Under the pieces are notes generated by a model. It searched no databases. It had not been told where the DNA came from and was given only the letters and a program-made list of their open reading frames with translations. Shown piece by piece: positions 423-44,097 of a stretch of DNA of 64,000 nucleotides. The first letter of the stretch is position 1. Each line of letters opens with the position of its first letter. Source of the DNA: Microthyrium microscopicum (Eukaryota); assembly GCA_010405405.1 (NCBI GenBank), contig MU004231.1:2846401-2910400 (forward strand). The letters run 5' to 3'. Both the position numbers and the translations under genes were made by a program.

Positions 423-574
423 TATTGTAATGAAGAATATGCTAAGGGATTAGATAATCGTAGGACCTAATTAGAGATAACATAATCCCCTAATTAGCGT
501 GTCCTAAAAACTATATTAGGCCCTTAGACTTCTATAGTAATTAACTATGCTTTATTTCTTATATTCTTATAATA
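423..574 (+). repeat. 5' LTR of copy 1
   Basis: Matches 10211-10362, 32231-32382 and 41682-41833 apart from C>T/G>A changes; shared core taattagcgtgtcctaaaaactatattaggccc. Confidence 0.95.
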
Positions 575-1239
575 TCTAATAGTAATAATTTAATTTAATT
601 AAGACTTTTAGATAATAAACCTCTTATAGGAATCTCTAGATTTATCTTATTGTTAATAATTACTTAGGATTAATATCTAGTAAAATATACTCTAAGAATA
701 TTATTCCTTAATTAGCTAGCCTTATTATAGCCTAATACTTAGTAACTATATATTAGAAAATAATTCTTAGAATTTATATATAATAATATTCCCTACTATA
801 ATATATTTTAAAAATATCTTAAATTATTTTTAATTTAAACTACTACTTTAAGGATTATTAAATATATTATAAGAATTATCTCTTTTATAATAATATTCTC
901 CTTATCTTTATTAACTTTTATTACGTTAATTATATAGCTATTAAATAAAATATAGAAACTTTTCCTTAGAAAATTCCTTAAGATAACGTTATAGAAACTT
1001 TACTATATAGATTAAAGCTAATAAGTAATAATATAAACTCTTAGCCTTAAGTTATCTTAGGAAATTAGATTAAGATCTTATCTATACTAAGAAAGTATAA
1101 AAATTTACCTTAGAATAATTTCTTAACTTTAAATTCTATTTAACTAACTTTAGTATAGAAACTTCTAAATCTTAAGACTCTTTTCTTACCTTACTAAGAT
1201 TATATTCTTTATTAAAACTATTACTTTCTCTTTATTAAA

Positions 1240-2958
1240 ATAAATAACTAGTATAATAATATTATAACCTAAACTATAAGATAAGATACTTAGTAGGTAT
1301 AATACTAAGCCTAGGTTACTAACCTAAGTTCTTAAAATAAGTAACTTACTCCTATATTATTAAATAATCTTTTTAGTATACTAAATCTTAGTCCTAACCT
1401 TATAACTTAGATTACTAATATTTAGTAATTAGGGCCCTAAGCCTTAAACTATTCTACTAGTATATATTAAGTTAATCTCTAGACTATTAACTATTCTCTT
1501 ACTAAACTATAAACTCTCTCTTAGGCTTAGAATTATATTCTTAAGGAACCTAACTACGTTCCTTAGGCCTATAACTAAACTTTCTAACGTAATAATAATA
1601 AAAATTAGTAGTCTATAAATAGGTCTATTCTTTTCTAGAAAGCGTTATTTTACTCTACTACTAATAAGTAAATTAAATAAGATTATAGCTCTAAATCTAT
1701 AGAAAATATCTAATATACTTAGTAGTAAAAAATAGTAAATTATATTACTAAATTAACCTCTTATCTTAACGTAAGTAAGTTTACCCTATATACTTAAGAT
1801 TACTAAGTAAATAAAATTAAGGCTTATACTTAGACTTAGGCTTTAACCTAAAAAACTTTATAAATAGGTATTACTTACCTAGACTTTATAGGAAAGCTAA
1901 ATAAAGAGTTAAATAAGACTATTAAATTACTTTTTTAAACTTTTAGTCCCTAAAAACTTATTAAGATAATAAGGAACGTTCCTTAAGAATAAAGATAATA
2001 TTTAACTAAGTTTAAGATATTTTTTAATAGTTTATTCTCTAAGAAACTAAGTAAGTATAATACTTAAGCTAAGAGCCTTTTTTATACCTTTAAGGCTAAT
2101 AAGAATATTCTCCTATTAAATTTTACTCTACCTAAATAGTAGAAAATTACTAAAGTTAAAGAATATCTTCTTATTAAGTAACGTCTTCTATAGGCTAACT
2201 TAGCTTAGTAATAGACTATAGAGGAGTTTAAGATACTTAAAAGTTTATCTTACTTCTTTATCTATTTTTAACCTATATTTAGTATTAAAAAAGATATACT
2301 TAAGGTTAGTATTTAGTAAAATTATATATTATAAGTTTTATTTACTAAGGAATTTATTTATTATCTTTATATTCTATAGACTTAAATAAATTCTATACTT
2401 ACTAATTATAAAATAAGTATTTAAATCTAAGGAGGCCTTAAAGAATAGGTTACTCTTAAAGCTAAGTATAGGTATAGTACTATTCCTAACCTTATAATTA
2501 ATATTTTAGCCTTTAAATAAGAAATTATTAAATATAATATAGACTCTTATAGAAATATACGTAATACTTATAATATTTATAGGCTAAAGTAGCTTAATAA
2601 AATCTCTTCTAGTTTTAAGAAAGATAAAGAGCTTACCCTAAATACTAGTTTTAAAGAATATCTTAAGAAAGTTAATAGTAAAAGCTATACTAATAATAAA
2701 CTTAAGTTAGATAATAAAAATTTAGAGTAGCTTAATATTATAAATAGCTATAGTTACTATTCTAAAGAATAACGTAATACTTAATACTCTAAGAAATTTA
2801 ACTCTAATAAGAAGTTATATTCTTTTTATAAAAAAGACTCTAAAGATAGAAAAGCTCTTATAGATAATTTTAAACTTAAGTATTAGAATTATAGTAAACT
2901 TAGTTACTACGCTATAAATTATAAAAAGCCTAACTAGTAATAATAGAATTTAAAAAAC
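1240..2958 (+). pseudogene. gag: gag relic with CCHC zinc knuckle
   Basis: 2881-2922 de-RIPs to approximately C-W-N-C-G-K-x-G-H-Y-A-x-D-C. The likely start (aaaATA from aaaATG) at 1240 is in the same frame; the start position is inferred. Confidence 0.75.
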
Positions 2959-5900
2959 TACTATTATTAAGAAATAAATAAGAATCTTCTAACTTAGAAC
3001 TAGAATACTTTACTTATCTATATAATAATTAATAAGCTTTCTTTAACTATATAAGTAAATATAGTAATACTCTTTTATATCTATCTATTTACTTATATTA
3101 TAAAAATTATTCTATTAAGACTATAGCTCTCTTAGACTTAGAAGCTAATTCTATTTATATTAGTTAAAAGATTATTAGGAAACTTAAAGCTTCTATAATA
3201 CCTATCCTAGAGAAAGAAGTTACTCTTATAAATAGCTATATAGTTATAACTTTCCTTAGGATTTACTTACCCTATTATATTAAGACTTTTTATAGCTACT
3301 TTAAGGCTTATATCCTAAATATTCTTAATCTTAATATTATTTTTAGACTTTTATAGTTCTAGTTATATAATTTATAAATTAATTAAATAATAGAGCAAAT
3401 TAAGCTTATAGAGTAATACTTAGAAGGCCTTTATATTTATAAGCTTACTATAAAATGCTAGATAGAGCCTCTTTAGAATAAGGGAAGCTACTTAAAATAA
3501 ATAGAGTAGTTTATAGCTAGCTTTCTTTATATAATCTTTTAAGTATTTTAAAATAAGGTAAAAAAAGTAAAGAATAAAGTTAAGAGCGTTCTTTAGCTAA
3601 TTTAAGGAATATAGGAATAGCCTAATATTTTCTTAATAACTAATAACTTTAATATTAATAAACTTGCTCTAGAAGATAAAAATATATAGAAACTTTTAAA
3701 TAATTACTATAAGTCCTTTTATTATACTTTTCCTAAACTTTTACTATACTCTAAGTTTAATTATAAAATCCTTATAAAAAACGTTCCTCTTTATAACTAG
3801 GCTTATTATTAGATATCTAGCCTATAACTAGAAAAGTAGAAAAAGTAGATTTAAGAACTACTTACTAAAGGACTTATTAAAGTCTTAAGAAGTCCTTAGG
3901 GTTTCCTTATCTTATTTATATTAAAGCTAAGAAGAAAATAGAAAATATATATTAACTACTATTTACTTAATATAGTTATATATAAAGATACTTATTCTTT
4001 ACTATAAATTAATAAGTATCTTAATACTATTAGTAGAGTAAGATTCTTCTTTAAGCTTAATCTTCTATTAGGCTATTAGTAAGTCTATATAGTAAAAAAA
4101 GATATTAAGAAAATAGTCTTTAATACTAAGTCTAAGAAGTATAAGTTCCTTATTATACCTTTTAGATTAATAAATATACTATTATTCTTCTAGCGTATAA
4201 TAAATACTCTTCTCTAGCTCTTTTTATTAATTTATATAGTTATTTACTTAGATAATATTATTATTTACTTAAATACTATAAAGAAATATTATAAGTATAT
4301 TACCTAGGTTCTAAAAATCCTCTAAGATAATAAGCTCTATGCTTATCCTAATAAATACGTCTTTAGGGTTAAGAAGATTAAATTCTATAGCTATAAAGTA
4401 GGAAATTAGTAAATTTAACCCTTATATAAAAAAACTACCTTAATTAAGTCCTAGCCTATATCTAAGAACGTATATAAAGTATATTAATTCCTTAATTTTA
4501 CCTTATACTATTAGTAATATATTAAGAACTTTACTAAGATTACTACCTTTATCTTTAACCTTTTAAAGGAAGCTAATCTAGATATTAAAAAAAAGAAGTA
4601 CTACTTTATTACTTAGACCTATTAATATACTATAGCTTTTAATAGAATTAAGACTCTATTAACCTTATTACCTATTTTAGTAATATATAATTTATAAAAG
4701 CTTATAAAGCTCTAAATAGATACTTTAAATTATATAATTAGTTATAAGCTAGTATAAAAAAATAACTAAAGTAAATAGTACCTAATTACTTTTAATAGCT
4801 ATAAGCTAAGTAGAGCTAAACTTAATTATTTAGTATATAAGAAAGAGCTTCTTATAGTTAAGAATATAATTAGGAGATACTAATACTACTTTCTAGAGAA
4901 GACTACTAAGATAATTATAGATTATAATAGCTTATAGTATATAAATATAATTAAGAATAATACTTAACGTATTACTTAATAAATTAAAGAGTTCTAAGAA
5001 TTTAATCTTATCTTTACGTATTATAAAGGTTCTTAAGTAATAGTTCCTAATACTTTTAGTTACTACTTAAACTTTTAAGAAAAATAGATTAATACTATTT
5101 AAGAAATAAAGCCTAAAGATAATAATAATAACTTATCTTCTAAGGCATAAGCTACTTTATTAGAACCTTTATAAGAGTAGAAAGAATAGAAAGCCTTCTA
5201 TATATAAGGCTTATAAAAAGTATTAAAAAAGAAAGATTATACTATCTCTACTAGTATATAGAAGAGGCTTTAAAAAAGCGTTCTTAATTATTTTTAAATT
5301 AACCTTAATAAAGATATTAAAAAGAAATATAAGTATTTATTCTTAGAGAAAGATTCTACTAAAGCTAAGATACTTACTAGTTTACTCTATATTTACTTCT
5401 TTTACTATTAAAACCTTATTAAGAAAGTATATAATTAGTATAAGTATTTATTATATATAGGCCTTACTAGTATTCTTAAACTAGAAGGTTAGTAGCTAGG
5501 AATAAAGAATAACTTCTAAAAATTTACTTAGTTCTATCCTATATATTAAGTTTAATAGATAAATTAAAGTAGACCTAAGTATAGGTTCTACTATTAAGTA
5601 TAAAACCTATAACTATTTAAGGCTTAAGGAATTAACTTAATTAATAAACTTTTATAGAGTCTCTTTAAGAATTAGTATATTATCTATATAATTAACTATG
5701 CTATAGAATAGCTTATTATAGAAATAGTACTAAATACTACTATTCTTATAGTTATAGAATTTATTTATAAGAAAATTATCTTAGAATATAGTTCTTCTTA
5801 ATTATTAACCTTAGATAATAAACCTTAGTTTATCTTAGACATAATTTTATCTTTATTATAATAAATAAAGACTAAGTACTACTTAATAGCCCTATATAAC

Positions 5901-7460
5901 CCCTAGTCTAATAAGAAGGTTAAGAGATTTAATAGCCTACTAGGTATATTTTTAACTAAGTTCTTAAAAGAAAAACTTATAGCTAGCTAAGATCTATACC
6001 TAGATTAAGTAGTTTATACTACTAGGATATAAGCTTATACTATATTAAGAATATCTTTCTTCTTCTTTATTTATAAGAAAGATTCTAAGGACTTTAAAAT
6101 AAGCTAGGTAAAGAAAAATAAATAAGCTAAATTAACTAGTATTATACCTCTTATCTACGTAATTATAAAAAATTACCTAAAGAAGGTTAAAACTACTAAG
6201 TAAGTCTATTATAACGCCTTATTAAAATAAGCTATAGCCTTAAACCTTATTAATAGTAATATAATTTTAAAAAAAGACTTTATTATTAAGTTCCCTATAG
6301 GTTCTTATATACTCCTTAAAAACTTAAATAAAACTAAATTCTAAGTAGCATAGTTTAGCCTTTATAAAGTCTTAAAGGCTTACTCCCTAAGAATATATAC
6401 TTTTAAGATACTTAATAAAAGAATACTTAAAAACCTTATCTATAGGAATTACCTTATATAGGTATATATATAAGAAGAAAATAAATACTATTACTAAAAC
6501 TAGCTATACCTTAAATATAAGTAATTAAGTAAAGATAACCTTAAAAGTATTCTAGATAAAGAGTATAAAAATAAAATAGATATATTTACTATAATTAAGA
6601 AAGACTAGCTTAATAGATTAAGAAACTTTTTAATAAAGTTAATTAATATTAAAAAGTCTAGTACTAGGAGATATTACTTAAGTCTATCTACTATTCCTCT
6701 TAACCTTATAAGAAAAGTTTAAAAAGCTAAAGTAAATATTTATAAATAAGAAAAGAAACATCTTATAGTAACTATTTATAACCTAAATAGTAACTTAAAG
6801 ACTCTTATAGTATTAAAATATATTCCTCTTAATCTAATTCTAGCTTTAGCGTAAAATAACTTAGAATAGATAAAGTAAATTATATAAGAAGTAGAATATT
6901 CTATAGTATTATAAAATCTAGTAAGGAAAAAAAATAATAATATTTTTATTCTCTTAAATTAAAGCTTAGTAAGGAAAGAAATCCTCTTAGCTATAATAAA
7001 TTAAGAATTAATCTTTATATTACTAGAATAATAAGAGTAAGGAGATAAATTATTAAAGCTAAGAAGCTATAATAAAATTACTATTTTAATTACTTATATA
7101 CCTATACTAGAGGTAATAAATCTATATAAATAAGTATCTAATCCTAAAGAAGACTATTAGGGTATTAACTCTTTATTACTAGATACTATAAAAGTAGAGG
7201 TTCTTCTTATAAATTATCCTAAACCTAGTCTACTATAAGAGATAAATATAACTAAAGGATTCTTATAGAATACTAATATATTTAGGCTAATTATAATACT
7301 TAGTAGTTTTATACGCCTTAGTACTAGCTTATAATATTTAGAATTAAGATAAAGATAATAAAAGGCTACTTCTAGATAAAAGATTATCTTATATATAAAT
7401 ATAAGTAAGGTACCTATAAGAAAAAAAAGAAAAATTAACCTTTTATTATCTCTTTTATAA
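2952..7460 (+). pseudogene. pol: pol relic (protease, RT, RNase H, integrase)
   Basis: De-RIPed motifs: ALLDSGA (~3126), SPWGFPILF...CIDY (~3890-3960), FSKLDLLSGYWQ (~4045), YLDD (4245), TDASD and NYPVHEKELL (RNase H, ~4715-4855), WGIDL, SDNGPQF, PQSNGKVERFN (integrase, ~5625-5935), WFGPY (~6350). End position approximate. Confidence 0.9.
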
Positions 7461-7714
7461 CTTTTCTTAATTATATTTATTTAAGAAAACTATTTATAAG
7501 AAATTACTTTTATTTATTATTAATTTAAGTAAACTATTATAAGTAATAATAACTAAAATTAAATCTTTAAATCTTCTTAGTAATCCTTAAGACTATTACT
7601 AAAGTTATTTAAATATAATAAGCTATCTCTAGATCTTTCTAGTAATCTTTAAGACTATTACTAAAAGCTTTCTTATAAAATATTTAATAGTAAGAAATAA
7701 GAAACTTAAATAAC

Positions 7715-9559
7715 CTAAATTCTTAAGCTAATCTACTACTTTTTAGTTTTAAAGTAACGTAAGCTTAATACTGCTTTTCTCTATTTCTTAAAAAATAACT
7801 AACTCTAAGAGTCTAGTTCTATTTCTTTCTCTATATAAGTAAGCTAATATACTTCTTCTTTACTAGAACTAAATATAGTTAGTAAAGCTTTTAAATAACC
7901 TAAAGATAGTGTAAATAATAAGCTATTAATAAAGTTATAAATAGAAGTAATAAGTAGTCTAGTAACTACCTATATTAATTACGTAGTATTTATACTTACC
8001 TTCTTTATTATAAATAAGTAATCTTATTTACTATTTAAGGCATAATTTATATAAGCCCTATTAAATATAAAATTACTTTTTATATTCTAGAAGACTATAT
8101 AATTATACTAAGTAATAACTTCTTTATCTAAGAGCTTAAGTATATAGTAGCGTTTATATTTATTATAACGCTAGTTAGGTTAGTAATCCTAAATATAAGC
8201 TATAGCTACTTATAGCTTATTACTACTAGATAGTAAGTTAGTTATTATTATAATAGCTAGCTTAGTCTAAGTAAGACTATACTTAATATAATACTTAAAT
8301 AATACTAGAATCTCTTAGAGGATTTTAACTCTTTAATTCTAAAGATCTTATAGAACCTAGATAAGCTTATTCTAAGTCTCTTTCTTATGTATTTATAGCT
8401 AGTAGTTTAAATAGATTAATTAACTATTTACTATAGTATAAGCTATATTATTAAGCAAATGCTTATAAGTCTACTTATTAAGCTTCTTTAAGAAAGCTAA
8501 ATAATAACCTAAACTAAGCTCTACCTTAATTTAAGGCTTAAGTAAAGTCTTATATATACTACTTTGCTTCTTTATAGGCTAATATAATAGTATCTTTACC
8601 TTTTCCTTACTTAAAGACTTAACGTACTCTAGTTTATTCTTAAAAATATTTAAGAAGCTAGTCTTACTAACTATATACTTATATACTTATAAAATATTAT
8701 AAGTTTACTTTAGCTTAAGTATTATATAATAGTAATAGCCTTAGCTATGCTCTTAGTTAATAACCTAATATAAGGTTATTTTAAAGTATACTAAGCTATT
8801 TTAAATATACTAGAATATATCTTTTACTACTTAAACCTAGGAATATATTATATCTTACTCTATATATATTTATATAGAATTAAGTAGTATAGTATTTAAG
8901 AAGTTATAGTCTAAACTAAAGGTATTAGTAATATAAGTACTAAATATTATAAATAGCTTAATCTTATTTTAATCTAGGAGACTTATTTCCTAAAGCTATT
9001 AAAGCGTTACCTATATTAGAGTATTCTTTTTAATAAAACTTACTTTTCGTTTAGGTATCTCTTAAGTAGCTTACTTATAAGCTAATTTCTACTAGTAAAA
9101 GAACTTACTCTTTAGAATTAAAGGATATTATCTAAATATAGGTAATTATTTATAAGATTATCTCGTCTTAGAATTAACGTTATAGTAGCTTATAGAAGCT
9201 TACTAGTAAGCCTTCTTAAGAAAAGAATTTAGATAGCTAATACTCTATTAATAACTAAATCTAGCTAGAGAAGGTAAAAAGTAGTTATTATTATTCCTTA
9301 TGCTTAAAAATCTTAATATATTATCTTATTAGCTATAAGCTTTAGTTAGAGAAGATAAACGTATAGGTATATTTATAAATAATTATAAACGTTCCTTAAA
9401 ATAAGGTTAAGTAACTAGACTTAGAGACTAAGTAATAAGACTTAGAGCTTATTATAAAGATTTAGCTTAATTATACTAAGCTTAAAAAACTTAAGAGTAA
9501 GTACTATGCTTTTTAGACGTCTTTAAAGATAATATAGTTAGCTTAGTATAAGGAGCTAT
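7715..9559 (-). pseudogene. RIP-mutated intronless antisense accessory ORF A (~615 codons), unknown function
   Basis: Minus strand begins agaATA GCT CCT (ATG GCT CCT, MAP...). One frame carries RIP-resistant codons (GAG, AAG, GAC, GCT, CGT, ATC, TTC) throughout, and in-frame TAA/TAG can be explained as CAA/CAG/TGG/CGA after RIP. The stop position is uncertain (7715 or 7706). Confidence 0.7.
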
Positions 9560-10201
9560 TCTAAAGAGCTCTTATAATTAAGAGCTTAAAAAGAATTAAG
9601 GATTAAAGAAAAGAAATATATAGAGCTACTTATACTTAATAATATTAAAAGTATAAAAGGAAATCTACTTTTACTAGCTTAAAGTATTATAGAAGTATAA
9701 TAAAAAAGAAGAAAAGAAGATAATAAATTATAAAGCTTTATAAATATAGGATTAAGCCTTTATCTTATATTTACTTAGACTAGTAATTACTATCTAATTC
9801 TTTATTACTACCTATATATTACTTTTTATAAACTTTACTCTTTAAGGCCTTAAAGTATAGGTTATATATATTCTTTACTAAATTAAGTAGTCTTAGTATA
9901 CCTATATAAATCTCTTATAATTTCTTAATTTACTATTACTAATAGCCCTTACGTAAATAAACTTTCTTAAAAGAATTAAGAACTATAAACGCTTAAGTAT
10001 TATTTATAATAGTTTAACCTAAATCTTAAGAAAAATCTTAAGAAGATAATTCTTTAGAAATTACTTTATAGCATAGCTAGGGTAATAGTCCTAAATCTTA
10101 AATAAAGATTCCTTATTAGTTATTATAATATTTTTTTTATTTTACTTATTTATTAAAGTTACGACTATAGGATTTATAATCTTAAGAGAGTTTATACTAG
10201 T

Positions 10202-10210
10202 AAAAGAAGA
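10202..10210 (+). other. Polypurine tract of copy 1
   Basis: aaaagaaga abuts the 3' LTR; copy 2 has aaggaagaa (41673-41681); most-G consensus AAGGGAGGA. Confidence 0.75.
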
Positions 10211-10362
10211 TATTATAATAAAGAATATACTAAGAGATTAGATAATTATAAGACCTAATTAGGGATAACATAATCCCTTAATTAGCGTGTCCTAAAAACT
10301 ATATTAGGCCCTTAGACTCCCGTAGTAATTAACCACGCTTTATTTCTCATATTCTTGCAATA
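10211..10362 (+). repeat. 3' LTR of copy 1
   Basis: Direct repeat of 423-574, followed by TSD GGCAT. Confidence 0.95.
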
Positions 10363-30476: not shown

Positions 30477-32230
30477 AAGTGAAGACTTGGTACGAATTAA
30501 GTCTGGAATTTTGAGGCAGTCGGGGAAGAGTGAAACACAAACTCTTGATATCTAGAATGAAGCCAAAGTGAGATTCAGATCTGCGCTATATGTGAGATAG
30601 TGCTAGTGAATGGAATGACCCGCCTTCAAATCGAGATGGCGCCTCTACTTCGATAGCGGGCGCCCACAAGGGAACTAATGAATAACAGATCACTTCGAAC
30701 GTGCCTACATGTCACAAAAAAACATGACAAGAGGAAACAAGAAGAAAGAAATCAGACCCCAGCTGGGTTTCTACCTTCTCAATTTGGTACCTTTGTAAGA
30801 TCCTCATTTCTCTCTCCACCAAGAAGCATCACCAAGAGTGATGCAAGCTTGGTTTACCCTTGGACAGCTCAGCCACCCGAGCAGTTGCTTGTTACTGTAT
30901 AAATGTCCCTGATAAAACAGTTTTGGTGGTCCGATTATGGACTTGATAAATCATTGATTGGGCAACAGAGATCCTGGAGGAGATATCGGACAGCGTTCTA
31001 CTAACCTGTTCAATTGGAACGCTTGAGCCCGATCCACGCCTATCTAATCCAGCCCGGCTATCGAGCGATTTGAATCTACATAGTGATGAGACCTGGCAGT
31101 TCATAGGCTGACTTGCAGCAGCAGTCACAATCCATGTCGGAGCTTGGCTGAGCCGAAGCAGACCGCTCAGTCGTGAGTTCTACCTGCTGGTGGAACAACT
31201 ATCGTCGTTGTTGGCTCCTGCATAGTGAATAGTGTGCAACCAACGTCTGTTCGGTCTGCGGGAGTGCAGATCTCCGATTTTTAGCTTAATCATTCGCAGC
31301 TTTGAACTTAGAGGAAAGCAGGACTACGACTAACAGTACTGAGCGCTCCACATAATGCTCTTTTGCTTCGACACCCGATCTAGTCTTGTGACTTGGTACC
31401 TCTAATCATTAATGATACGATCAGTCACAGATGGACGATTGACCTGTTTTACCTGTATAGTTCGTGAAATAGCCATCGCTTACTTGCTTGGAGTTTTGGA
31501 CAATCTCAAAATGAGAAGCTCCAATGGTTTAGGACTCTTCGACCATAAACAGAGCAGGACGTTTCCTGTTCATGAAGGTACCGAGCAGATTACACTGTGA
31601 GTCTGGCACCTCTATGAAGTGCACGTCACCCTTGCGAGTGTTTTCTGATTCCATGGAAGCCTCGTTGTTGGACGTCATCTGGGTTGACCAACCATTCGAC
31701 GCTTCTATGGCGAATTAGCGAAAGAATGGTGGCACCGCGTTCGCGCTAAAACTTACCGTACTTTGGGATTTCGGCCCTTCCCATGGCTACTTGAAGTTCG
31801 GCCTGCGTTACAAACTGATAATTCGAGTTTACAGTAAAACCTCCTCAATTCCAGGTGGTGACTACTAGGCGGTAGAGATATACATTTTGATGAATTGTAC
31901 GAGCAGATGCACCACGACGATCTCCCAATCCGAGAAAGTCTCTTTGGCATCACAGACACTTCCATTATCCTTTACATATCGTAGAACCAATCATCGGGCG
32001 CGCGATGGGGTTGGTGATGTTCAGCCTTGAGGTTCTGGAGAAAGAGCTTGGAGCCATTTCAGGACGTAGCCGACGGCGTGGCACGCTTAGCGTCCTGCGG
32101 CAAGAACCGCCTAGCTACTAATTCAACCAATCTATTGGTTACTATGCAGAACTAGTGATGCTTTTCCCAGATTTCCTGGAAATTTCACGCGAGAAACCTG
32201 CTACGTGGGAACGGTAAGATCGCTCGCCAT

Positions 32231-32382
32231 TGTTGTGATGAAGAACATGCCAAGGGATTAGATAATCATAGGACCTAATTAGGGATGACATAATCTCCTA
32301 ATTAGCGTGTCCTAAAAACTATATTAGGCCCTTAAATTCTTGTAGTAATTAACCACGCTTTATTTCTTATATTCTTATAATA
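32231..32382 (+). repeat. 5' LTR of copy 2
   Basis: 152-bp repeat beginning TGTTG. Confidence 0.95.
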
Positions 32383-33046
32383 TTTAGTAGTAATAATTTA
32401 ATTTAATTAGGACCTCTAGATAACGAACCTCTTATAAGAATTCCTAGATTTATCTTATTATTAATAATTACTTAGGATTAATATTTAGTAAGATATACTC
32501 TAAGAATACTATCTTCTAATTAGCTAGCCTTATTATAGCTTAATACCTAGTAACTATATATTAGAAAATAATTCTTAGGATTTATATATAATAATATTCT
32601 TTACTATAATATATCCTAAAAATATTTTAAATTATCTTTAATTTAAACTACTACTTTAAGAATTATTAAATATATTATAAGAATTATTTCTCTTATAATA
32701 ATACTCTCTTTATCCTTACTAACCTTTGCTACGTTAATTATATAGCTATTAGACGAAATATAGGAACTTCTTCTTAGAAAATTCCTTAAGATAATGTTAT
32801 AGGAACTTCACTATATAAATTAAAGCTAATAAGTAATAACGTAGACTCTTAGCCTTAAGTTATTTTAGGAAATTAGATTAAGATCTTATCTATACTAAGG
32901 AAGTATAAAAATCTACCTTAGAATAATTTCCTAATTCTAGATTTTGTCTAATTAACTTTAGTATAGAAACTTCTAGACCTTAAGACTTTTCTTCTATCTT
33001 ACTAAGATTATACTCTTTATTAAAACTATTACCTCTTTTTACTAAA

Positions 33047-36000
33047 ATAAATAACTAGTATAATAATATTATAGCCTAAGCTATAGAATAAAATACCTAG
33101 TAAGTATAATACTAAGCCTAAGTTACTAACTTAGGTTTCTAAGATAAGTAACTTACTTCTATATTACTAAATAACCTTTCTAACGTACTAAATCTTAGTC
33201 TTAACCTTATAACTTAGGTTACTAATATTTAGTAATTAGGGCCTTAAGCCCTAAACTATTTTACTAATATATATTAAGTTAATCTCTAGACTATTAACTA
33301 TTCTTCTACTAAATTATAAACTTCCTTTTAAGCTTAGAACTATACTCCTAGGGAACCTAACTATATTTCCTAGGCCTATAATTAAACTTTCTAACGTAAT
33401 AATAATAAAAATTAGTAGTTTGTAAATAGGCCTATTCCTTTTTAGAAAGCGTTATTTTACTCTACTACTAATAGGTAAAGTAAATAAGATTATAGCCTTA
33501 AACCTATAGAGGACGTCTAATATATTTAGTAATAAGAAATAGTAAATTATATTACTAAATTAACTTCTTACCTTAATATAAGTAAGTTTACTTTACGTAC
33601 TTAAGATTATTAAGTAAATAAAATTAAGGCTTATGCCTAGACTTAGGCTTTAACCTAAGAAACTTTATAAATAGGTATTACTTACCTAAACCTTATAGGA
33701 AAGCTAAGTAAGGAGTTAGATAAGACTATTAAATTACTCTTCTAAACTTTTAGTCCTTAAAAACTTATTAAGATAATAAGGGATGTTCCTTAGGAATAGA
33801 GATAATATTTAACTAAGTTTAAGATGCTTCTTAATAGTTTATTCTCTAGGAAACTAAGTAAGTATAATGCCTAGGCTAAGAGCCTCCTTTATATCTTTAA
33901 GGCTAGTAAGGATATTCTTCTATTAGATTCTACCTTATCTAAGTAGTAGAAAATTACTAAGGTTAAAGAATATCTTCCTATTAAGTAATATTTCTTATAA
34001 GCTAACTTAGCCTAGTAATAGGCTATAGAGAAGTTTAAGATACTTAAAAGTTTATCTTACTTTTTTACCTACTTTTAACCTATATTTAGTATTAAAAAAG
34101 ATATGCTTAAAGTTAATATTTAGTAGAATTATATATTATAGGTTTTATTTACTAAGGAATTTATCTATTATCTTTATATCTTATAGACTTAAATAAATCT
34201 TATACTTACTAATTATAAAATAAGTATCTAAATCTAAGGAGGCCTTAAAGAATAAGTTACTCTTAAAGCTAAGTATAGACATAGTGCTATTCTTAATCCT
34301 ATAGTTAATATTTTAGCCTTTAAATAAGAGATTATTAAATATAATATAGACTTTTATAGGAATACGTATAATACTTATAATGCTTATAAGTTAGGGTAGC
34401 TTAATAAAATCTTTTTTAATTTTAAAAAAGATAAAGAGCCTACCCTAGATACTAGTTTTAAAGAATATCTTAAGGAAGTTAATAATAAAAGCTATACTAA
34501 TAATAAGCTTAAGTTAAATAATAAAAATTTAGGGTAGCTTAATGCTATAAATAGTTATAATTACTATTCTAGAGAATAATATAATACTCTACGCTCTAAG
34601 AAATTTAACTCTAATAAAAAGTTATAGCCTTTTTATAAAAAGGACTCTAAAAGTAGGAAAGCTTCTATAGATAATTTTAAACTTAAGTACTAGAATTATA
34701 GTAAACTTAGCTACTACGCTATAGATTATAAAAAGCTTAATTAATAATAATAGGGTTTAAAAAACTATTATTACTAAGAGATAAATAGGAATCTTCTAGC
34801 TTAGAACTAGAATACCTTATTTATCTATATAGTAATTAATAAGCTTTCCTTAACTATATAAGTAGATATAGTAATACTCTCTTATATCTATCTATTTACT
34901 TATATTATAAAAATTATTCTATTAAGATTATAGCTCTCTTAGACTTAGGAGCTAACTCTATTTACGTTAGTTAAAAGATTATTAAGAAACTTAAAGCTCT
35001 TATAATACCTATCCTAGAGAAAAAAGTTATTCTTATAAATATCTATATAATTATAACTTTCTTTAGAATTTACTTACTTTATTATATTAGGACCTTTTAT
35101 AGTTACTTTAAGGCTTATATCTTAAATATTCTTAATCTTAATATTATTTTTAGACTCTTATAGTTCTAGTTATATAATCCCTAGATTAATTAGATAATAG
35201 AGTAAATTAAGCTTATAAAATAACGCTTAGGGGGCCTATATACTTATAAGCTTATTATAAGACGCTAAGTAGAGCCTCTCTAGAATAAGAAGAGCTACTT
35301 AGAATAAATAGAGTAGTTTATAGCTAGCTTTCTTTATATAATTTTTTAAGTACTTTAGAATAGAGTAAAAAGAGTAGAAGATAAAGTTAAGAATATTCTT
35401 TAGCTAATTTATAAAATATAAGAATAGCTTAATATCTTCTTAATAACTAATGACCTTAATATTAATAAACTTACTTTAGAAGATAAAAGTATATAGAAAC
35501 TTTTAAATAATTACTATAAATTCTTTTGTTATACCCTTCTTAAATTCTTCTTATATTCTAAGTTTAATTATAAAATCCTTATAAAGAATGCTCCTCTTTA
35601 TAACTAGGCTTATTATTAGATATTTAGCCTATAACTAAAAGAGTAAAAAAAGTAGATTTAAGAACTACTTACTAAAGGACTTATTAAAGTCTTAAGAAGT
35701 CCTTAGAGTTTCCTTATCCTATTTATACTAAAGCTAAGAGAAAAATAAAGAATATATATTAATTACTATCTACTTAATATAGTTACGCATAAAGATACTT
35801 ATTTTTTACTATAAATTAATAAGTATCTTAATACTATTAGTAGAGTAAGATTCTTCTCTAAGCTTAATCTTCTATTAGGCTATTAGTAAGTCTATATAGT
35901 AGAAAAAGATATTAAGAAAATAGCCTTTAATACTAAGTCTAAGAAGTATAAGTTCCTTATTATATTTTTTAAATTAATAAATACGCTATTATTCTTCTAG

Positions 36001-39000
36001 CGTATAATAAATATACTTCTCTAGCTTTTCCTATTAACCTACGTAGTTATTTACTTAGATAATATTATTATTTACTTAAATACTATAGAGAAATATTATA
36101 AGTATATTACTTAGGTTCTAAAGATCTTCTAAGATAATAAGCTCTATACTTATCCTAATAAATACGTCTTTAGGATTAAGAAGATTAAATTCTATAGCTA
36201 TAAAGTAAAAGGTTAGTAAATCTAACCTTTATATAAAAAGACTACCTTAATTAAGTCCTAGTCTATACCTAAGAACGTATATAAAGTACGTTAATTTCTT
36301 AGTCTTACCTTATACTATTAGTAATATATTAAGAACTTTACTAAGATTGCTACTCTTATCTTTAATCTCTTAAAAGAGGCTAACCTAAATATTAAGAAAA
36401 AGAAGCACTACCCTATTACTTAAACCTATTAATATACTATAGCCTTTAATAGAATTAAGACTCTATTAACTTTATTATCTATCTTAGTAGTATATAACTT
36501 ATAAAAGCTTATAAAGCTCTAAATAGATACTTTAGATTATATAATTAATTATAAGCTAGTATAAAAAGATAACTAGGATAAATAGTACTTAGTTACTTTT
36601 AATAGCTATAAGCTAAGTAAAGCTAAACTTAACTATCTAGTATATAAAAAAAAGCTTCTTATAGTTAAGAATATAATTAAGAGATACTAATACTACTTCT
36701 TAGAGAAGACTACTAAAGTAATTATAAATTATAATAGCTTATAGTATATAAATATAATTAAGAATAATACCTAACGTATTACTTAATAGATTAAAGAATT
36801 CTAAGAATTTAATCTTATCTTTACGTATTATAAGGATTTCTAAGTAGTAGTTTCTAATACTCTTAATCGCTACTTAAACTTTTAAAAAGAATAGATTAAT
36901 ACTATTTAGGAAATAGAGCTTAAAGATAATAATAATAACTTATCTTTTAAGGTATAAGCTACCTTATTAGAACTCTTATAAGAGTAAAAAGAATAAAAAG
37001 CCTTTTATATATAAAGCTTATAAGAAGCGTTAGAAAAGAAAGATTATATTATCCTTATTAGCATATAGAAGAGGCTCTAAAAAAGCATTCTTAATTATTT
37101 TTAGATTAATCCTAATAGAGATATTAGAAAAAAACGTAGATATCTATTCTTAAAGAAAGATTTTACTAAAGCTAAGATATTTACTAATTTACTCTATATT
37201 TATCTCCTTTATTACTAAGACCTTATTAAGAAAGTATATAATTAGTATAGATACTTATTATATATAAGCTTTACTAGTATTTTTAAACTAAAAGGTTAGT
37301 AGCTAGAAATAGAGGACAACTTTTAGAAATTTACCTAGTTTTATTCTATATATTAAGTTTAATAAATAGATTAAAGTAGGCCTAAGTATAGGTCCTACTA
37401 TTAAGTACGAAACTTATAGCTATTTAAGGCTTAGGAAATTAACCTAATTAGTAAACTTCTATAGAGTCTCTTTAGGAACTAGTATATTATTTATATAATT
37501 AACTATACTATAGAATAGCCTATTATAAAAGTAGTACTAAATACTACTACTCTTATAGTTATAGAATTTATTTATAGAAAAATTATTTTAGAATATAGTC
37601 CTTTTTAATTATTAACCTTAGATAATAGACTTTAGTTTATCTTAGACGTAATTTTATTCTTATTATAATAGATAAAGATTAAGCACTACTTAATAGCTCT
37701 ATATAACCTCTAGTCTAATAAGAAGATTAAGAAATTTAATAGCCTACTAGGTATATTTCTAACTAAGTTCCTAGAAGGAAAACTTATAGCTAGCTAGGAT
37801 CTATATTTAGATTAAGTAGTTTATATTACTAGGGTATAAGCTTATACTATATTAAGAATATCTTCCTTTTTCTTTATCTATAGAAGAGATTCTAAGGACT
37901 TTAAAATAGGCTAAGTAAAAAAAAATAAATAAGCTAAATTAACTAGTACTATACCTCTTATCTACGTAATTACTAAAAATTACCTAGAGAAGATTAGAAC
38001 TACTAAGTAAGTCTATTATAATACTTTATTAAAATAAGCTATAGCTTTAAACTTTATTAATAGTAATATAATTTTAAAAAAGGACTCTATTATTAAGTTC
38101 TCTATAAGTTCTTATATACTTCTTAAAAACTTAAATAAAACTAAGTTCTAGGTAGTATAGTTTAGCCTTTATAAAGTCTTAAAGGCCTACTCTTTAGGAA
38201 TATACGCTTTTAAGATACTTAATAAAAGAGTACTTAGAAACTTTATCTATAAGAATTGCCTTATATAGGTATATATATAAAAAGAAAATAAATACTATTA
38301 CTAGAATTAGCTATATTTTAAACATAAGTAACTAAGTAAGAATAACCTTAAAGGCGTTCTAGACGAAGAGTATAAAAGTAAAATAAATATATCTACTATA
38401 ACTAAGAAAGACTAGCTTAATAGATTAAGAAACCTTTTAGTAGAGTTAATTAATATTAAGAGGTCTAGTACTAGGAGATATTACCTAGGTCTACCTACTA
38501 TTCTTCTTAACCTTATAAGAAAAGTTTAAGAAGCTAAAGTAGGTATTTATAAATAAGAAAAAAAACGCTTTATAGTAACTATCTATAACTTAAGTAATAA
38601 CTTAGAAACTCTTATAGCGTTAGAATATATTCCTCTTAGCCTAATTCTAGCTTTAGCATAAAATAATCTAGAGTAGATAGAGTAAATTATATAAAAGGTA
38701 GAATATTCTATAATATTATAAAATCTAGTAAGGAAGAAGAATAATAATATTTTTACTCTTTTAAATTAAAGCTTAGTAAAGGAGGAAATCTTCCTAGCTA
38801 TAATAGAATAAGAATTAATCTTTATATTATTAGAATAATAAAAGTAAAGAGATAAATTATTAAGGCTAAGGAGCTATAATAGGATTACTACCTTAATTAC
38901 CTATATATCTATATTAAAAGTAATAAATCTATATAAATAAGTATCTAATCCTAGAGAGGACTATTAAGGCATTAACTCTTTATTACTAAATACTATAAAA

Positions 39001-39267
39001 GTAGAGGTTCTTCCTATAGATTATCCTAAACCTAGTCTACTATAAGAGATAGATATAACTAAAGGATTCTTATAGAATACTAATATATTTAGGCTAACTA
39101 TAACGCTTAATAGTTTTATATATCTTAGTACTAGCCTATAATATTTAAGATTAGAATAAAGATAGTAAAAGGCTACTCCTAAATAAGAGATTATTCTACG
39201 TATAGATATAGGTAAGGTACCTATAAAAAAGAAAAGAAAAATTAACCTTTTATTATCTCTTTTATAA
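33047..39267 (+). pseudogene. gag-pol relic of copy 2
   Basis: Same motifs as copy 1: zinc knuckle at 34688, ALLDSGA ~34933, YLDD ~36052, integrase ~37430-37740. Confidence 0.9.
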
Positions 39268-39528
39268 TCTTTCCTAATTATATTTATTTAAAAAATTGTT
39301 TATAAGAAATTACTTTTATTTTATTATTAATTTAAGTAAACTATTATAAGCTATAATAAATAAGCTAAATCCTTAGATCTCTCTAGTAATCCCTAGAACT
39401 ATTACTAAGGATATTTAAATATAATAAGTTATCTTTAGATTTCTCTAGTAATCTCTAGGACTATTACTAAAGTTTACCCTTTAATAAATTAATAAGATAA
39501 GACTAAGAAATATAGGAATATTAAAGAA

Positions 39529-41037
39529 CTATTACTATACGTCTTACTATAATCTTATAGAGTCTTATCTTTTTAAGGCCTATGCTTATTCCTTCTTCTT
39601 ATTCTTTAAGAGCTTTACCTAGGCTACTAATTTTATAGTAATTTTAGCTATTCTAAAGTACTCCTTATTAATTAGTAACTTAGGAATGCTAGGAGAAGTA
39701 GATAATTAAATAATAGTAGAATTTAAACCTTTTTTTTAACTCTATAGTAAGATATAGTCTTTATAGAATAAATAAGTTTAAAGTTTACTATTAAACATAT
39801 AATTAGTATAAGCGTTATTTAGGAAAGGAGCTTTATTTCTTTTATATATACTAATAATATATTTATTATAAGTATAGATTTATAATAAGTTCTAATAACG
39901 CGTATAAGCCTTTTCTTACTTTACTTTTATAGTTATATATATTATAGAAGTCTTTAAATAAGAAGATAATAATAGAATATTCTTAGTTAAGAGTAAAGTA
40001 CTTAGATACTAATAGATCTCTTACTAAGGTATAAGCGTTAAGATATTAGTAACCTCTACTAGAATACTATTATTCTTCTAATAATATTTTAAAAGCTAGA
40101 AGAGTAATTCTTAAGTTACTTTCTCTTTTAAGAGTTTAACGTCCTTAAAGGTAAGATACTAGTTAGAGTTTAAGAACTTAACCTATTTTTTTTAATAATC
40201 TATACTTTTTTTAGTAGTTAGTCTTATTATATTTATATAACTACGCGTAGTAGATAGCTTTTTTAGAATTACTATTAAGCTTACTTTACGTTTATACTTT
40301 TAGAGTCTTACTTACTTTAACTCTTACTTATATTTATTACGTATAGTTTTAGTAGTTTTAATATACTTATAAGTATTTTCTAGGCTCTTATTAATAAAGA
40401 CTAGTTAATCTTTATAACCTTTTACTTCTTACTTTATAAACTCTTAGTACTTTATTAAGTTTACTAACTCCTTTTTAGTAACCTTATACTTATAAGTTAA
40501 AACTATTATAGAAGTTTTAATATAGAAATTGCGTACTTATAATAGGTTAAAGGGTATAGGAGTTCTATACTTAGCCTTATAATTACTTTCTAATAAGTCT
40601 AGACTTCTTATTATACGCGCTAATTCCTAAATAAGAGTATTATTAATAGAAATTATTTAATAAGATATTTTTAGCATTATAAAAAGTACTAAAAACTTAT
40701 AGTAAGAATAAAAGACGTTATTAGAAGTATTACTAAAGAGATCTTCCTTCTTCTTATTAGCTTCTAGGATTTAGTTAATTAGCTAAAAACTTATAGAATA
40801 GGAATAATACTTAATTAAGTTATAAACTAATTCTTTAAGAGTTTCTTTACGACTTAGTAAAAGGGATAGAACCTTAGCCTTAACCTTTTTATATAAATAG
40901 GTTATATAAGGTAAGAGCTATTTTTGCTTATTTTCCTTTAAAGCGTTAATAATTTTTTAATAAGCGTTTAAATAAGAAGAGTTTCCTTTATTAGACTTTT
41001 AAGAGCTACCCTTTTTTAGAGTATCTAGAGGAGCTAT
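39529..41037 (-). pseudogene. RIP-mutated intronless antisense accessory ORF B (~503 codons), unknown function
   Basis: Minus strand aaaATA GCT CCT CTA GAT ACT CTA AAA AAG GGT AGC TCT (about MAPPDTPKKGSS). One frame keeps RIP-resistant codons (e.g. AAG AAG AAG GAA GAT, GAG ATC, GCG CGT) over 1.5 kb. Stop position approximate. Confidence 0.72.
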
Positions 41038-41681
41038 TTTAAAAGCCTTAAGAAGTATAAATAGTAAGTTTTAAGTAGGGAGAATATATAAAGTTACTTA
41101 TATTTAATAATATTAGAAGTATAAGAGGGAATCTACTTCTACTAGCTTAAAAATATTATAGAAGTATAATAAAAAAGAAAAAGAGAAGATAATAAATTAT
41201 AAAGCTTTATAGATATAGGATTAGGCTCCTATCCCTATATTTACTTAGATTAGTAATTACTACCTAGTTCTTTATTACTACCTATACGTTACTTTTTATA
41301 AATTTTATCTTTTAAGGCCTTAATATATAAGTTATATATATCTCTTACTAGATTAAGTAGCCTTAGTATATCTATATAAACTTCTTATAATTCCTTAATA
41401 TATTATTACTAATAGCTCTTATATAGATAAATCTTCCTAAAAGGATTAAGGAGCTATAAACGTCTAAGTATTATTTATAATAATTTAACTAAGATCTTAA
41501 GGAAAGTTCTTAGGGAATAATATCTTAAAGGTTACTATCTAGTATAACTAAAGCAATAAACCTAATTCCTAGGTAGAGGTTCCTTATTAGTTATTATAAT
41601 ATTCTTTTTATTTTATTTATTTATTAAAGCTATAGTTATAGGATTTATAATCTTAGGAAAGTTTACGCTAGTAAGGAAGAA

Positions 41682-41833
41682 TATTATAATAAAGAATATG
41701 CTAAGGGATTAGATAATTATAGGACCTAATTAGGGATAATATAATCCTCTAATTAGCGTGTCCTAAAAACTATATTAGGCCCTTGGACTCCCGTAGTAAT
41801 TAACCACGCTTTATTTCTCATATTCTTGCAACA
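41682..41833 (+). repeat. 3' LTR of copy 2
   Basis: Ends TTGCAACA; preceded by the PPT and followed by the TSD. Confidence 0.95.
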
Positions 41834-44097
41834 GCCATGTGGCCGCAACGTGGAGCTTCTTCGTCCCATCTGCATTGTCTAAACCATCACCTTTCACGCG
41901 AAGTAATCGACACATTACTCCATAATGCCCAAATCTAATAACTTTTATCTAGCATTGCCCCGTCACCGCATAAAGGACGGACCTATCATGTTTACTCCGT
42001 ATGGTAACCCGACATCGGTGCGTGGTCGTGGTCGTGGTCGCTGCTTGTCAGACGCCCATCCTCTAGATTTATGTTTCTTTTAAGCGCGGATTGTCTTGAA
42101 TTGTGATTGTGCATAAAGCCTCAAAGCGATACAGCAATGATGGGGGCTGAGCGGTTGAAGTTGCCCTTCTAAAATATTTCCCCTTCGTCCATACCGGCAA
42201 CAAAAATGCCACACCAACATCATTAACTGGATAGGCATTTCCTCCTGAGCGATCAGAACATTCTGCAGTAGGCCGAGAATTCATGGCATCAACGGCTCAA
42301 CCTCCGCCCATCTGCAACTTGTAAGAACTGCATTTTAGTTGCTGCATCACCTAGTGTTTGTACAAAAAGCATGTCTATATTACCATCTTACATTCACTGC
42401 TGGATAGAAAATGCGTGAGTCATGATTGGCAATCTCTTAAGCAGGACTGCCCTTTTTCATCCCTTGCCTTATAGTATTCTGTATTCATGAGCAACGTATC
42501 TTACTGATACCTTGCGGGGAAGCAAAGAGTAAAAGCAAGACAACTTTCGACACTTCAAGATATTTGATTGTTCTGCACGCATTTGAAGCTCTGACCGTAC
42601 TCGGTGTGCAGGTTGGTGTTGATTTTAATGCGGACGCTGCGTCCATGCTCACAGCCCAGCAAAAAGAAATAACATGTCGCACAAGAACATTTTAAGACAG
42701 CCAAAAACAGTCCAACTCGTTGGATCTTGCAATGTTTTGTTATATCTTCCTTACTTAGCAGGTTTTCTGGCTGTAGAGTATTGTCAGGAAGTGAACAATT
42801 TCAAGGTTTTCGATCTCAGCACTTTGTTGTCATCAACTATGCTGATTATCAAAACGAGATTTCTACCTCTCTCATGATGCATTCATTCCTGTATTTCTTT
42901 CAGCTTCCCGACCATTTGGTTGACCACATGGCTCACACGTGTGCGTGCGCCAACATTAGGGACTCAGCTTGTATTCGCTTATGCAGCGCCCAGCCGCCCC
43001 GTGACACCAATACTAATGCATGTCTCAACAAATTCACGAAGTCGGTTTTGCCTTTTTATCATGCCCACAATATACCTGCACAATATACATGGTATCCTTT
43101 GTCTGTCAAGTTTCCCGGACATCTTTACCTACTGGCATATCTGATTGTTTCCTCCTTACCCCTTTGGTAATGCATACGATGATAGCTTAAGGTAGTTGAA
43201 TCGATCTCGTAGGTGCCAGCGTAGCTCACTGTGTCTCTCTATCATTTGCTTCTTTTTCTGGTGCAACCACATGGTTCGCCAGGGTTTAACTTAGGCTTTC
43301 ATTAGCTTCTTTGCTTGTTTATTTGATCAAAAATCTTCCCATAAGGAAACATCCTTTAGGATGTCTTTGAATTTGCTCGAAGCGAGCATACAGGTAGTAC
43401 TTGGCTGTCGGTTGTTATACCAGTGTACCCTCCAACTTAATCATCATGTTCTTCGAAAAGATGTTCTGACTGGCCAGCTGTCATCGAAGGCAACTACAAA
43501 TACGCTAAATTGATTCTAGGCTGAATGATATCAATGGAAACGGTGAACAGGAGGGAGCGAATTTGTCTGGAAGGCACACTTTCACTGTAGTTGGTGACCT
43601 CTTATCCTCCTCATTTACTGGCCTCTTTATGTGTCAACATGTGCCTGGAGTAGTTAAGAGCAGGTAGAACGCACTCCTGTCTCTATGTGTGCCTAGGTCA
43701 TGCTGAATCTGCGAAGTCAGACAATAGCTATGGCCGTAGTGATAGGGTCTGTGATAAGCGTCTATTTACTTTTTGTACCTTCAAGAACTCGAAACGCTCA
43801 CGTGCTTTCGATAAACAGGGTAGAAATATAATGTAGAGTATGTAATGTAAGGCGTTGAGGGGAGAAGTTAAGTCTCAGCCTGATTGCAGCCTTGTCTGTG
43901 GCGCATTTGTGGCTTAGAGCGGCTTTGCCCCGCGTCTAGCCGATCTCGGAATCATGAGCGAGGCATTTGTCAGGTTCACTAGTGCTCTCAACCACTTCGA
44001 CAACTTTTTGATTGCTAGAACTTCCTCGGAGACATATCACATACCTAATCCTCCCATACCTACTCTCATCCTGCCTTCCCTCCCCGAGTACGCCAGA

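Follow-up and report, generated by a model that had tools for sequence, protein, structure and literature searches.

The window analysed here, 64,000 nucleotides of contig MU004231.1 in the Microthyrium microscopicum assembly GCA_010405405.1 (positions 2,846,401 to 2,910,400 of the forward strand), carries two AT-rich blocks of ∼21–23% GC in surrounding DNA of ∼47% GC. The host is a saprobic Dothideomycete. Each block is a full-length long terminal repeat (LTR) retrotransposon degraded by repeat-induced point mutation (RIP); our subject is the region between pol and the 3′ LTR, where a first-pass annotation had pointed to one minus-strand open reading frame (ORF) per copy, here called ORF A and ORF B. 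Element A (423..10362, plus strand, GC 0.21) and element B (32231..41833, plus strand), a second copy of the same family, were delimited by blastn of their ends. Both have LTRs of 152 bp in direct orientation with TG..CA-type ends and ∼89% identity within each copy (423-574 and 10211-10362 in A; 32231-32382 and 41682-41833 in B), and both are bordered by 5-bp target-site duplications, GGCAT at 418-422 and 10363-10367 for element A and GCCAT at 32226-32230 and 41834-41838 for element B. The ends of element B were confirmed by contigs from other copies, which part from it exactly before 32231 and behind 41833. A blastn comparison of the two AT-rich blocks matched A 420-7665 to B 32228-39471 (89.5% over 7,247 positions) and A 9615-10367 to B 41083-41838 (85.9%), with no match between A 7665-9615 and B 39471-41083. 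We refer to the two unmatched stretches as module A (7666..9614, minus strand, 1,949 bp, reaching from pol to the right flank) and module B (39472..41082, minus strand, 1,611 bp), which sits in the same slot, cannot be aligned with module A and holds the site of the annotated motifs.

The strand and frame of gag-pol were fixed by an RNase H-like domain found on the plus strand in both copies, at 4629..5003 in A and at ∼36439-36807 in B. The Pfam matches were RT_RNaseH_2 (E 7.9e-16) and RT_RNaseH (E 5.7e-15) when stops were read as Q/W, and remained at E 1e-12 and E 2e-11, respectively, when stops were read as X; besides these two, no Pfam family was found in the true pol frame at E 0.1. The pol frame extends ∼2.4 kb past RNase H and its signal stops at ∼7400 in A, so that the modules lie between this point and the 3′ LTRs, which start at 10211 in A and 41682 in B. 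Of 8,000 candidates scored in a search with the pol read-through, 16 proteins reached E ≤1e-5, the best at E 8e-34; we take the Pfam accessions of these pol relatives to be those of RVT_1, RNase H-like and rve, with Chromo in addition in two of them. From these similarities, both elements are classed as Ty3/Gypsy retrotransposons, probably of the chromovirus type, with gag-pol on the plus strand. With gag-pol in this orientation, the annotated minus-strand ORFs are antisense to it and lie between pol and the 3′ LTR. The presumed gag (1300-3000, plus strand) had one frame low in stops and a strong periodicity of three bases, with chi2 per 900 nt reaching 44, and gave no Pfam match.

Both copies are saturated with RIP mutations and inactive. 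The TpA/ApT ratio was 1.69–1.90 in both elements and both modules (1.69 in element A) compared with 0.70 in flanking genes, and (CpA+TpG)/(ApC+GpT) was 0.04–0.08 (0.04 in element A) compared with 1.3 in flanking genes. Differences between copies were likewise almost entirely transitions. Over the 7,239 aligned sites of the 5′ LTR and gag-pol, 743 of the 757 differences between A and B were transitions, leaving 14 transversions (0.19%) and 4 gap events, and in sequencing run X1 the other genomic copies differed from the window element at 2,093 places, 2,058 of them by transitions. The identity of A and B before RIP was ∼99.8% over the 7.2 kb of LTR-gag-pol. A forced global alignment of the two modules, in contrast, held 141 transitions, 348 transversions (22%) and 114 gap events over 1,576 sites, which amounts to no alignment. 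At the sites that remain polymorphic between A and B (424-7665 vs 32232-39471), the C/T differences stood before T in 271 of 388 cases and the G/A differences after A in 252 of 355, with 43 in the classical CpA context; CpA/TpG sites are apparently saturated in both copies, so that only second-choice RIP contexts still differ.

The conserved right flank between the module and the 3′ LTR (A 9615..10210, plus strand; B 41083-41681) was more diverged than gag-pol. Together with the 3′ LTR (9615-10365 vs 41083-41836) it had 98 transitions, 10 transversions (1.33%) and 3 gap events over 751 sites, a sevenfold excess of transversions over the 14 in 7,239 of gag-pol (Fisher p 3e-5), and the codon model described below detected coding signal in none of its frames. 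Because the right flank and 3′ LTR have this higher transversion divergence, the element is a mosaic in which gag-pol, the module and the 3′ end each have a history of their own, at least three in all.

The edges of the modules were sharp, with identity dropping from ∼90% to background within ∼10 bp both on the left (A∼7670/B∼39475) and on the right (A∼9615/B∼41083). Two full-length copies (A and B) were compared, each module type being present once in the window, and contigs from other genomic copies extended the comparison. Four of these contigs, from a DNA run that includes this stretch, followed the pol of B up to 39471 and then continued into A-type sequence (loose-end consensus agreement 0.97), and others spanned module B at ∼84–88% identity (47/380, 47/396 and 62/381 letters differing). 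Module B is therefore multi-copy, and both module types recur in other copies. The antisense ORF is thus not conserved in the manner of gag-pol, with its 0.19% transversions, since it occurs in two non-alignable versions that are each multi-copy. These results show that the module was exchanged as one block. Because gag-pol was nearly identical before RIP and the module edges are sharp, we conclude that A and B differ by module replacement, that is, by recombination between sub-lineages, and not by accelerated point divergence in place.

This conclusion bears directly on one claim of the first-pass annotation, namely that ORF A and ORF B belong to one protein family whose variants diverged far beyond gag-pol, in the manner of an arms race or of a system for self/non-self specificity. 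The near-absence of transversions in gag-pol and the sharp module edges make the contrast between the modules and gag-pol a product of recombination and not of rate, and the part of the claim that invoked rapid divergence is not supported; the pattern is that of a module swap. A dN/dS analysis is impossible on RIP-saturated single copies, and nothing in the A/B data bears on self/non-self specificity.

Another explanation for two unmatched stretches is that a different foreign mobile element inserted itself in each case, or that each module is a piece of a host gene that was captured, as might be expected from sequences that align neither with one another nor with the rest of the element. However, both edges coincide within a few bases in A and B, and no terminal inverted repeats, direct repeats or duplications were found at them; moreover, the modules had no match to transposases or host genes in Pfam or the databases searched, and the B-type module accompanies the element in several copies, also under a second organism label. 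We consider nested insertion very unlikely for these reasons.

Several further features of the modules and their borders were observed. In the conserved post-pol spacer, a direct repeat of ∼40 nt with 62-nt spacing is present in both copies (7579-7597 and 7641-7659 in A; 39369-39408 and 39431-39470 in B), each unit with the inverted repeat TAGTAAT ... ATTACTA, and the last base of the second unit coincides with the left junction of the variable module. This repeat could be the mark of a recombination point or a 3′-end signal for the antisense ORF. The same element family was also found in run X5, which carries a different organism label: 125 contigs aligned over 32231-41833, among them pieces of the B-type module at ∼85–86% identity (42/307 and 41/273 letters differing). 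Since 928 of the 946 listed change-places in this run were transitions, we interpret it as the same element, independently mutated by RIP, which suggests that the run is from a close relative or that the element spread horizontally. Some other copies of the B-type region lacked 109 nt within 40510-40620 (one contig each in runs X1 and X5) or 47 nt within 41370-41418 (runs X1 and X2), neither length being divisible by three.

The coding character of the antisense frames was assessed by three measures (stop density, 3-base periodicity and a codon model), for each of which the degraded pol of the element itself served as calibration. ORF B (39560..41100, minus strand, ∼510 codons) is a degraded antisense ORF with ∼7.5 stops per 100 codons, all TAA/TAG. 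This was the lowest stop density of the six frames across the module, it fell to 4.5–5.5 over 40200-41099, and it compares with 8.7–8.8 per 100 codons in the pol frame. ORF A (7790..9590, minus strand) is a degraded antisense frame with coding-like signal only over ∼7825-8950, the part upstream being without a clear frame. The periodicity chi2 per 900 nt was ∼26 in A 7920-9119 and ∼17 in B 39500-40999, compared with 13–29 in pol and 4–8 in the non-coding stretch 7020-8519; with the phases mapped onto the annotated minus-strand frames, both modules shared the codon-position pattern of the pol sense frame. For the third measure, a codon-usage log-odds model was trained on the gag-pol of A. As a positive control, it gave +33.8 bits to the true frame of the pol of copy B and at most +4 to the other frames, and in non-coding stretches every frame scored at most +0.5 bits. 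In module B the annotated frame scored +20.7 bits and the other five −21 to −48. Over the whole of module A the annotated frame scored −8.2 bits, the best of six (others −15 to −59), and over 7825-8949 it reached +2 to +11 bits per 450 nt.

Overall, the annotated frames look like degraded coding sequence, as had been proposed, strongly in B and moderately in A. The data support well that ORF B is dead coding sequence of roughly 500 codons. Both frames are riddled with RIP stops and contain no intact ORF, and we conclude that each is probably a genuine gene, now dead. The explanation that we prefer, and consider likely to be correct, is that these near-identical dead chromovirus-type Gypsy copies carry two alternative, swapped modules, each with the remains of an antisense ORF (∼450–590 codons).

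Searches for relatives of the ORFs were negative throughout. Pfam searches with ORF A and ORF B under two stop readings returned no family at E ≤10 and no match to TRP28 (PF04195), and phmmer searches of PDB with both ORFs returned nothing at E ≤1. For ORF B only, a word-seeded search gave 0 of 7,998 candidates at E ≤0.01, and an exhaustive phmmer search against 1.84 billion representatives gave none at E ≤0.001. RIP erases most domain signal, to the extent that only the RNase H-like domain was detectable in the true pol frame, and the negative ORF searches are therefore weak. Nevertheless, relatives of pol can be found at E 8e-34 in spite of its degradation, so the ORFs are at least not members of a comparably conserved family. 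We also compared the element by tblastn with 47 metagenome loci that encode proteins related to the best pol match. No high-scoring segment pair was obtained with ORF A and four were obtained with ORF B, all at E ≥0.64, compared with 1e-46 for pol. The ORFs downstream of pol at these loci were on the sense strand, and three matched pol in phmmer, suggesting that they belong to next copies.

Several of these observations count against the explanation by swapped antisense genes. Because no relative of either ORF was found, the 'gene' rests on the statistics of degraded DNA. The 47 un-RIPed loci, which are the nearest un-RIPed pol relatives retrieved, have no long antisense ORF downstream of pol, so that an accessory ORF is not general in the wider clade. 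The stop density of ORF A (11.1 per 100 codons) is not distinctive among frames, one sense frame of module A is also weakly positive in the codon model (∼8050-8949), and the signal in ORF A is moderate, giving moderate support for dead coding sequence over ∼375 codons only. Finally, the exchange mechanism and any function of the ORFs are matters that we infer. The same observations raise the possibility that there is no gene, the module being a variable non-coding spacer whose coding-like statistics are artefacts of RIP composition. Such a spacer would account for the lack of homologues of ORF B in 1.84 billion representatives and of both ORFs in Pfam and PDB, and for an ORF A frame that, at 11 stops per 100 codons, is no better than other frames and competes with a weakly positive sense frame. 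It would not readily account for module B, in which one frame of six is positive (+20.7 bits against −21 or below) with fewer stops than pol, nor for a periodicity in both modules that equals that of pol, follows the same phase pattern and is missing from the element's non-coding stretches. We therefore regard the absence of a gene as quite improbable.

We turn to the relationship between ORF A and ORF B, which the first-pass annotation had described as very distant homologues with shared C-terminal motifs. The peptides on which this was based are present on the minus strand at the coordinates given below, with the correction that every residue written as Q is a TAA/TAG stop (asterisk). Block 1 reads AYTNYMFNSKL*TYLF in B (39766-39813) and AYINYALNSK*DYLF in A (8012-8056), block 2 reads NILLLSSYLKTSIIYI in B (39934-39981) and NLLSSSNKL*VAIAYI in A (8192-8239), and block 3 reads LKEKVT*ELLF*LLKYY*KNN in B (40069-40131) and IHKKET*NKLI*VL*DL*N*R in A (8330-8392). 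The three blocks are collinear and lie in one frame per copy, and blocks 1 and 2 stand 45 codons apart in A and 40 codons apart in B, so that this part of the description was accurate. The motif region of B spans 39766..40131 on the minus strand (39766-39837, 39931-39981 and 40069-40131), and its counterparts in A are 8012-8080, 8189-8239 and 8330-8392. A RIP-aware alignment of the region, by the scoring described below, joined 120 codon pairs in 5 blocks with 51% nucleotide and 29% residue identity, and its score came largely from stops and TAT/TAC codons, of which 5 and 7, respectively, were aligned with each other.

Standard protein comparisons gave no significant support for homology. With composition-based statistics, the best blastp match among all 36 frame pairs was the annotated pair, over 18 residues at E=1.5; without composition correction the annotated pair reached 1e-8, and nonsense pairs reached 1e-6 to 1e-4. 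When each ORF was compared by phmmer with its partner among 180 real-sequence decoys, the partner was found at E about 180, which is no signal, and ranked 1st and 2nd of 181 by whole-sequence bits (with a margin of <1 bit); by best domain its ranks were 176th and 150th. Shuffle tests were more favorable. The BLOSUM62 Smith-Waterman score of A against B was 127, compared with 84.6±11.7 for shuffles, and was reached by 0 of 300 shuffles (2/300 and 10/300 with stricter gaps). The annotated pair was first of the 36 frame pairs by this score (z 3.5 and 3.35), with one nonsense pair at z 3.33. To allow for RIP, we passed BLOSUM62 target frequencies through C-to-T and G-to-A decay to obtain a 64×64 codon matrix, a procedure in which no sequence is reconstructed. 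With this matrix the annotated pair was first of 36 in all four settings (z 3.6, 4.2, 1.6 and 3.4; best nonsense pair z ≤2.6) and hence in six of six settings overall, and its score was reached by 1 of 1000 codon shuffles, or by 2/1000 and 1/1000 when codons were shuffled inside windows of 40 and 20 codons.

The value of these shuffles was limited by the behavior of ORF A toward unrelated sequence. Its z was 4.1 against the unrelated gag and 3.4 against a chunk of pol, compared with 4.4 against ORF B (2.9, 2.7 and 3.05, respectively, with stricter gaps), and its alignments with gag and pol showed the same near full-length drift as that with ORF B. Because similar z values are obtained with unrelated degraded coding sequence, shuffles understate chance, and full-length shuffle tests were rejected as sufficient evidence of homology (z 3.4–4.1 for ORF A against gag and pol). 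The caveat of the first-pass annotation that the shrunken amino-acid alphabet of RIPed sequence inflates chance matches was borne out. Shuffling, proposed there as a check of significance and run here on the present-day sequences, placed the pair above nearly all shuffles (0/300; 1–2/1000 codon shuffles), with a z that ORF A matches against unrelated gag.

We therefore used a null of equal-length real sequences (n=528) taken from the six frames of both elements outside the modules. The C-terminal 200 codons of the two ORFs had a RIP-aware score of 50.6, which was reached by 0 of the 528 controls (means 26.7–27.6, sd ∼4, maxima 44.4 and 43.6); their BLOSUM62 score of 81 was reached by 3 of 528. 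In a chunk-by-chunk matrix the peak lay on the collinear diagonal, with 49.9 for C-terminus by C-terminus and 37.7 in the next diagonal cell, and the N-terminal half was at background (∼27, sd 4). In a broader null, 43 of 6000 unrelated chunk pairs (0.7%) reached 50.6, as did 0 of 365 sense-coding pairs. The C-terminal region was picked post hoc from 5–25 possible chunk pairs, and allowing for this choice the effective p for the resemblance of the C-terminal third is ∼0.002–0.1. The signal was also not specific to the annotated frame: a plus-strand in-phase frame scored 48.4 against 50.6, and the six in-phase frames averaged 37.5, compared with ∼28 for the twelve out-of-phase pairs.

Comparisons of the DNA itself did not strengthen the case. 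Nucleotide log-odds alignments with free gap lengths were not above real controls (0 to 41 of 176 reached the score in 8 settings), and with simple DNA scoring the score was reached by 9/264 and 0/264 controls, or by 78/264 and 33/264. Whole-module alignment under strict scoring did no better than dinucleotide shuffles (z 1.6; the observed score was reached by 9 of 100), and transition-tolerant and purine/pyrimidine scoring gave z ∼0 with alignments that span nearly the whole modules and are thus uninformative. Toward the opposite end of the modules, both frames spell F(R/K)IAP over an identity island of 14/16 nt (p ∼0.06; 65 such matches among 3.09 million window pairs), and 3 pairs of 16-mer windows matched at ≥15/16, none of them collinear.

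These results do not show that ORF A and ORF B form a single family. The RIP-aware C-terminal score is suggestive (0/528), yet with BLAST at E=1.5 and nothing from HMMER the relationship is not established. The weak collinear resemblance in codon steps in the C-terminal third may be the last trace of a common ancestry, and we judge the question of whether A and B are true distant homologues to be almost evenly balanced, leaning slightly toward the negative. One possibility is that the modules are simply unrelated sequences in the same slot, with motif matches that arose by chance from the RIP-shrunken alphabet. In its favor, all standard significance tests (BLAST, HMMER) fail; collinearity at the DNA level is not above shuffles or real controls, near-perfect 16-mers occur off the diagonal by chance, and comparable z values are obtained against unrelated coding sequence. 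Less easily reconciled with chance are the consistent first rank of the annotated pair among 36 frame pairs, a C-terminal score reached by neither the 528 specific controls nor the 365 coding-by-coding pairs, and the position of the signal on the collinear diagonal. We consider this explanation a plausible one, though we lean away from it.

The reading in which ORF A and ORF B are one family that diverged under an arms race or a self/non-self system fares less well. It draws on the fact that the modules fill the same slot of two otherwise near-identical elements, which we counted in its favor, and on the same strand, similar size and in-phase frames of the ORFs at the right edge, as well as on the rank of the pair (6/6 settings), the 0/528 controls, the diagonal peaks (49.9 and 37.7 vs ∼27, sd 4) and the F(R/K)IAP island (p ∼0.06). 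However, in addition to the evidence for recombination given above, BLAST and HMMER provide no signal, ORF A scores z 4.1 against unrelated gag, 43/6000 unrelated pairs reach the C-terminal score, and that score is not frame-specific (48.4 vs 50.6) and stems largely from stops and Tyr codons. We regard an arms-race family as unlikely.

Antisense genes between pol and the 3′ LTR are established in plants, where the literature describes a class of additional antisense ORFs (aORF-3R) in maize Grande, rice RIRE2, Silene Retand and PvRetro13, those of Retand often with a TRP28 domain (PMC7264820, PMC11963269). The ORFs described here resemble this class in position, in antisense orientation and in a length of several hundred codons, and the plant ORFs are reported to be of unknown function (PMC7264820, PMC11963269). 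They differ in their fungal host and in the absence of a match to TRP28 (PF04195) or any other Pfam family, a difference to be read in light of the weak detection after RIP. Also, plant aORFs are reported to be about as conserved within a family as gag-pol, whereas here two non-aligning versions accompany a near-identical gag-pol. Closer in host is Boty of Botrytis and Sclerotinia, described as a chromovirus-type Gypsy element of fungi whose 3′ part carries an additional gene, brtn, in antisense (PMC8365987, PMC7264820, PMC4227169). The elements in the window resemble Boty, as described, in the fungal chromovirus-type Gypsy backbone and the antisense 3′ gene; one paper uses the name 'brtn-106', and if the number is a length, which is a guess, brtn is far shorter than the ∼450–590 codons here. 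Boty/brtn was the only fungal example that turned up in the literature on antisense or additional ORFs, and no report of a comparable antisense-ORF dimorphism in a fungal element surfaced in a narrow search of that literature and of the literature on recombination, supplements not included.

Inter-element recombination during reverse transcription of LTR elements and swapping of env in retroviruses and endogenous retroviruses are documented (compare PMC6894440, PMC10536682). The two elements fit such exchange of modules between retroelements in their near-identical gag-pol with an unrelated or deeply diverged 3′ module, in their sharp junctions and in their mosaic divergence. Unlike in env swapping, what was exchanged here is an accessory ORF in antisense, and every copy is dead. 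A further parallel is with the antisense genes of deltaretroviruses (HBZ of HTLV-1, APH-2 of HTLV-2), which are coded opposite gag-pol near the 3′ end with presumed drive from the 3′ LTR side (PMC11963269). Those, in contrast, are genes of animal retroviruses, to which no sequence relation is expected, and use of a promoter on that side in the fungal elements would be by analogy.

Taken together, the explanation that we prefer has the following form. Modules A and B are two alternative, non-alignable stretches of 1.6–1.95 kb between pol and the 3′ LTR, exchanged most likely by template switching between co-packaged RNAs of two sub-lineages in reverse transcription or by DNA recombination between copies. 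By analogy with the systems above, transcription of the antisense ORF would have begun on the element's 3′ side and run toward pol, and its product may have been an element-encoded accessory or regulatory protein; in the present copies dozens of stop codons inactivate the ORF. Extra antisense ORFs of unknown function are known in LTR retrotransposons, with few fungal examples, and what sets this case apart is the presence of two non-alignable versions in otherwise ∼99.8% identical elements. A family of near-identical elements with two alternative antisense ORFs would show that the accessory gene is a swappable module, and living copies from related species would provide a natural contrast for the function of the gene. 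A more far-reaching version holds that before RIP the exchangeable antisense gene had two or more allelic forms, deeply diverged but with a common C-terminal domain, as a lineage-specific 'specificity' module kept distinct by selection and shuffled by recombination; if so, it might, for example, be a regulator whose action is confined to its own sub-lineage or which blocks competitors. We regard this version as a long shot. The practical value of the analysis lies mainly in a caution, namely that motif matches in RIP-degraded DNA need real-sequence controls besides shuffles.

Two minor observations concern the wider setting of the elements. In run X6, which is RNA by guess only, contigs touch only the outer LTR ends of element B (32230-32334 and 41759-41838) and continue into several flanks, with the interior of the element uncovered; this suggests LTR or solo-LTR sequence within transcripts of other loci and is no evidence either way on expression of the element. 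Lastly, the DNA of normal GC content that separates elements A and B contains a 477-codon open frame (20359-21792, plus strand) for a RecQ-family ATP-dependent DNA helicase, which matches a named protein of Microthyrium microscopicum with 100% identity.

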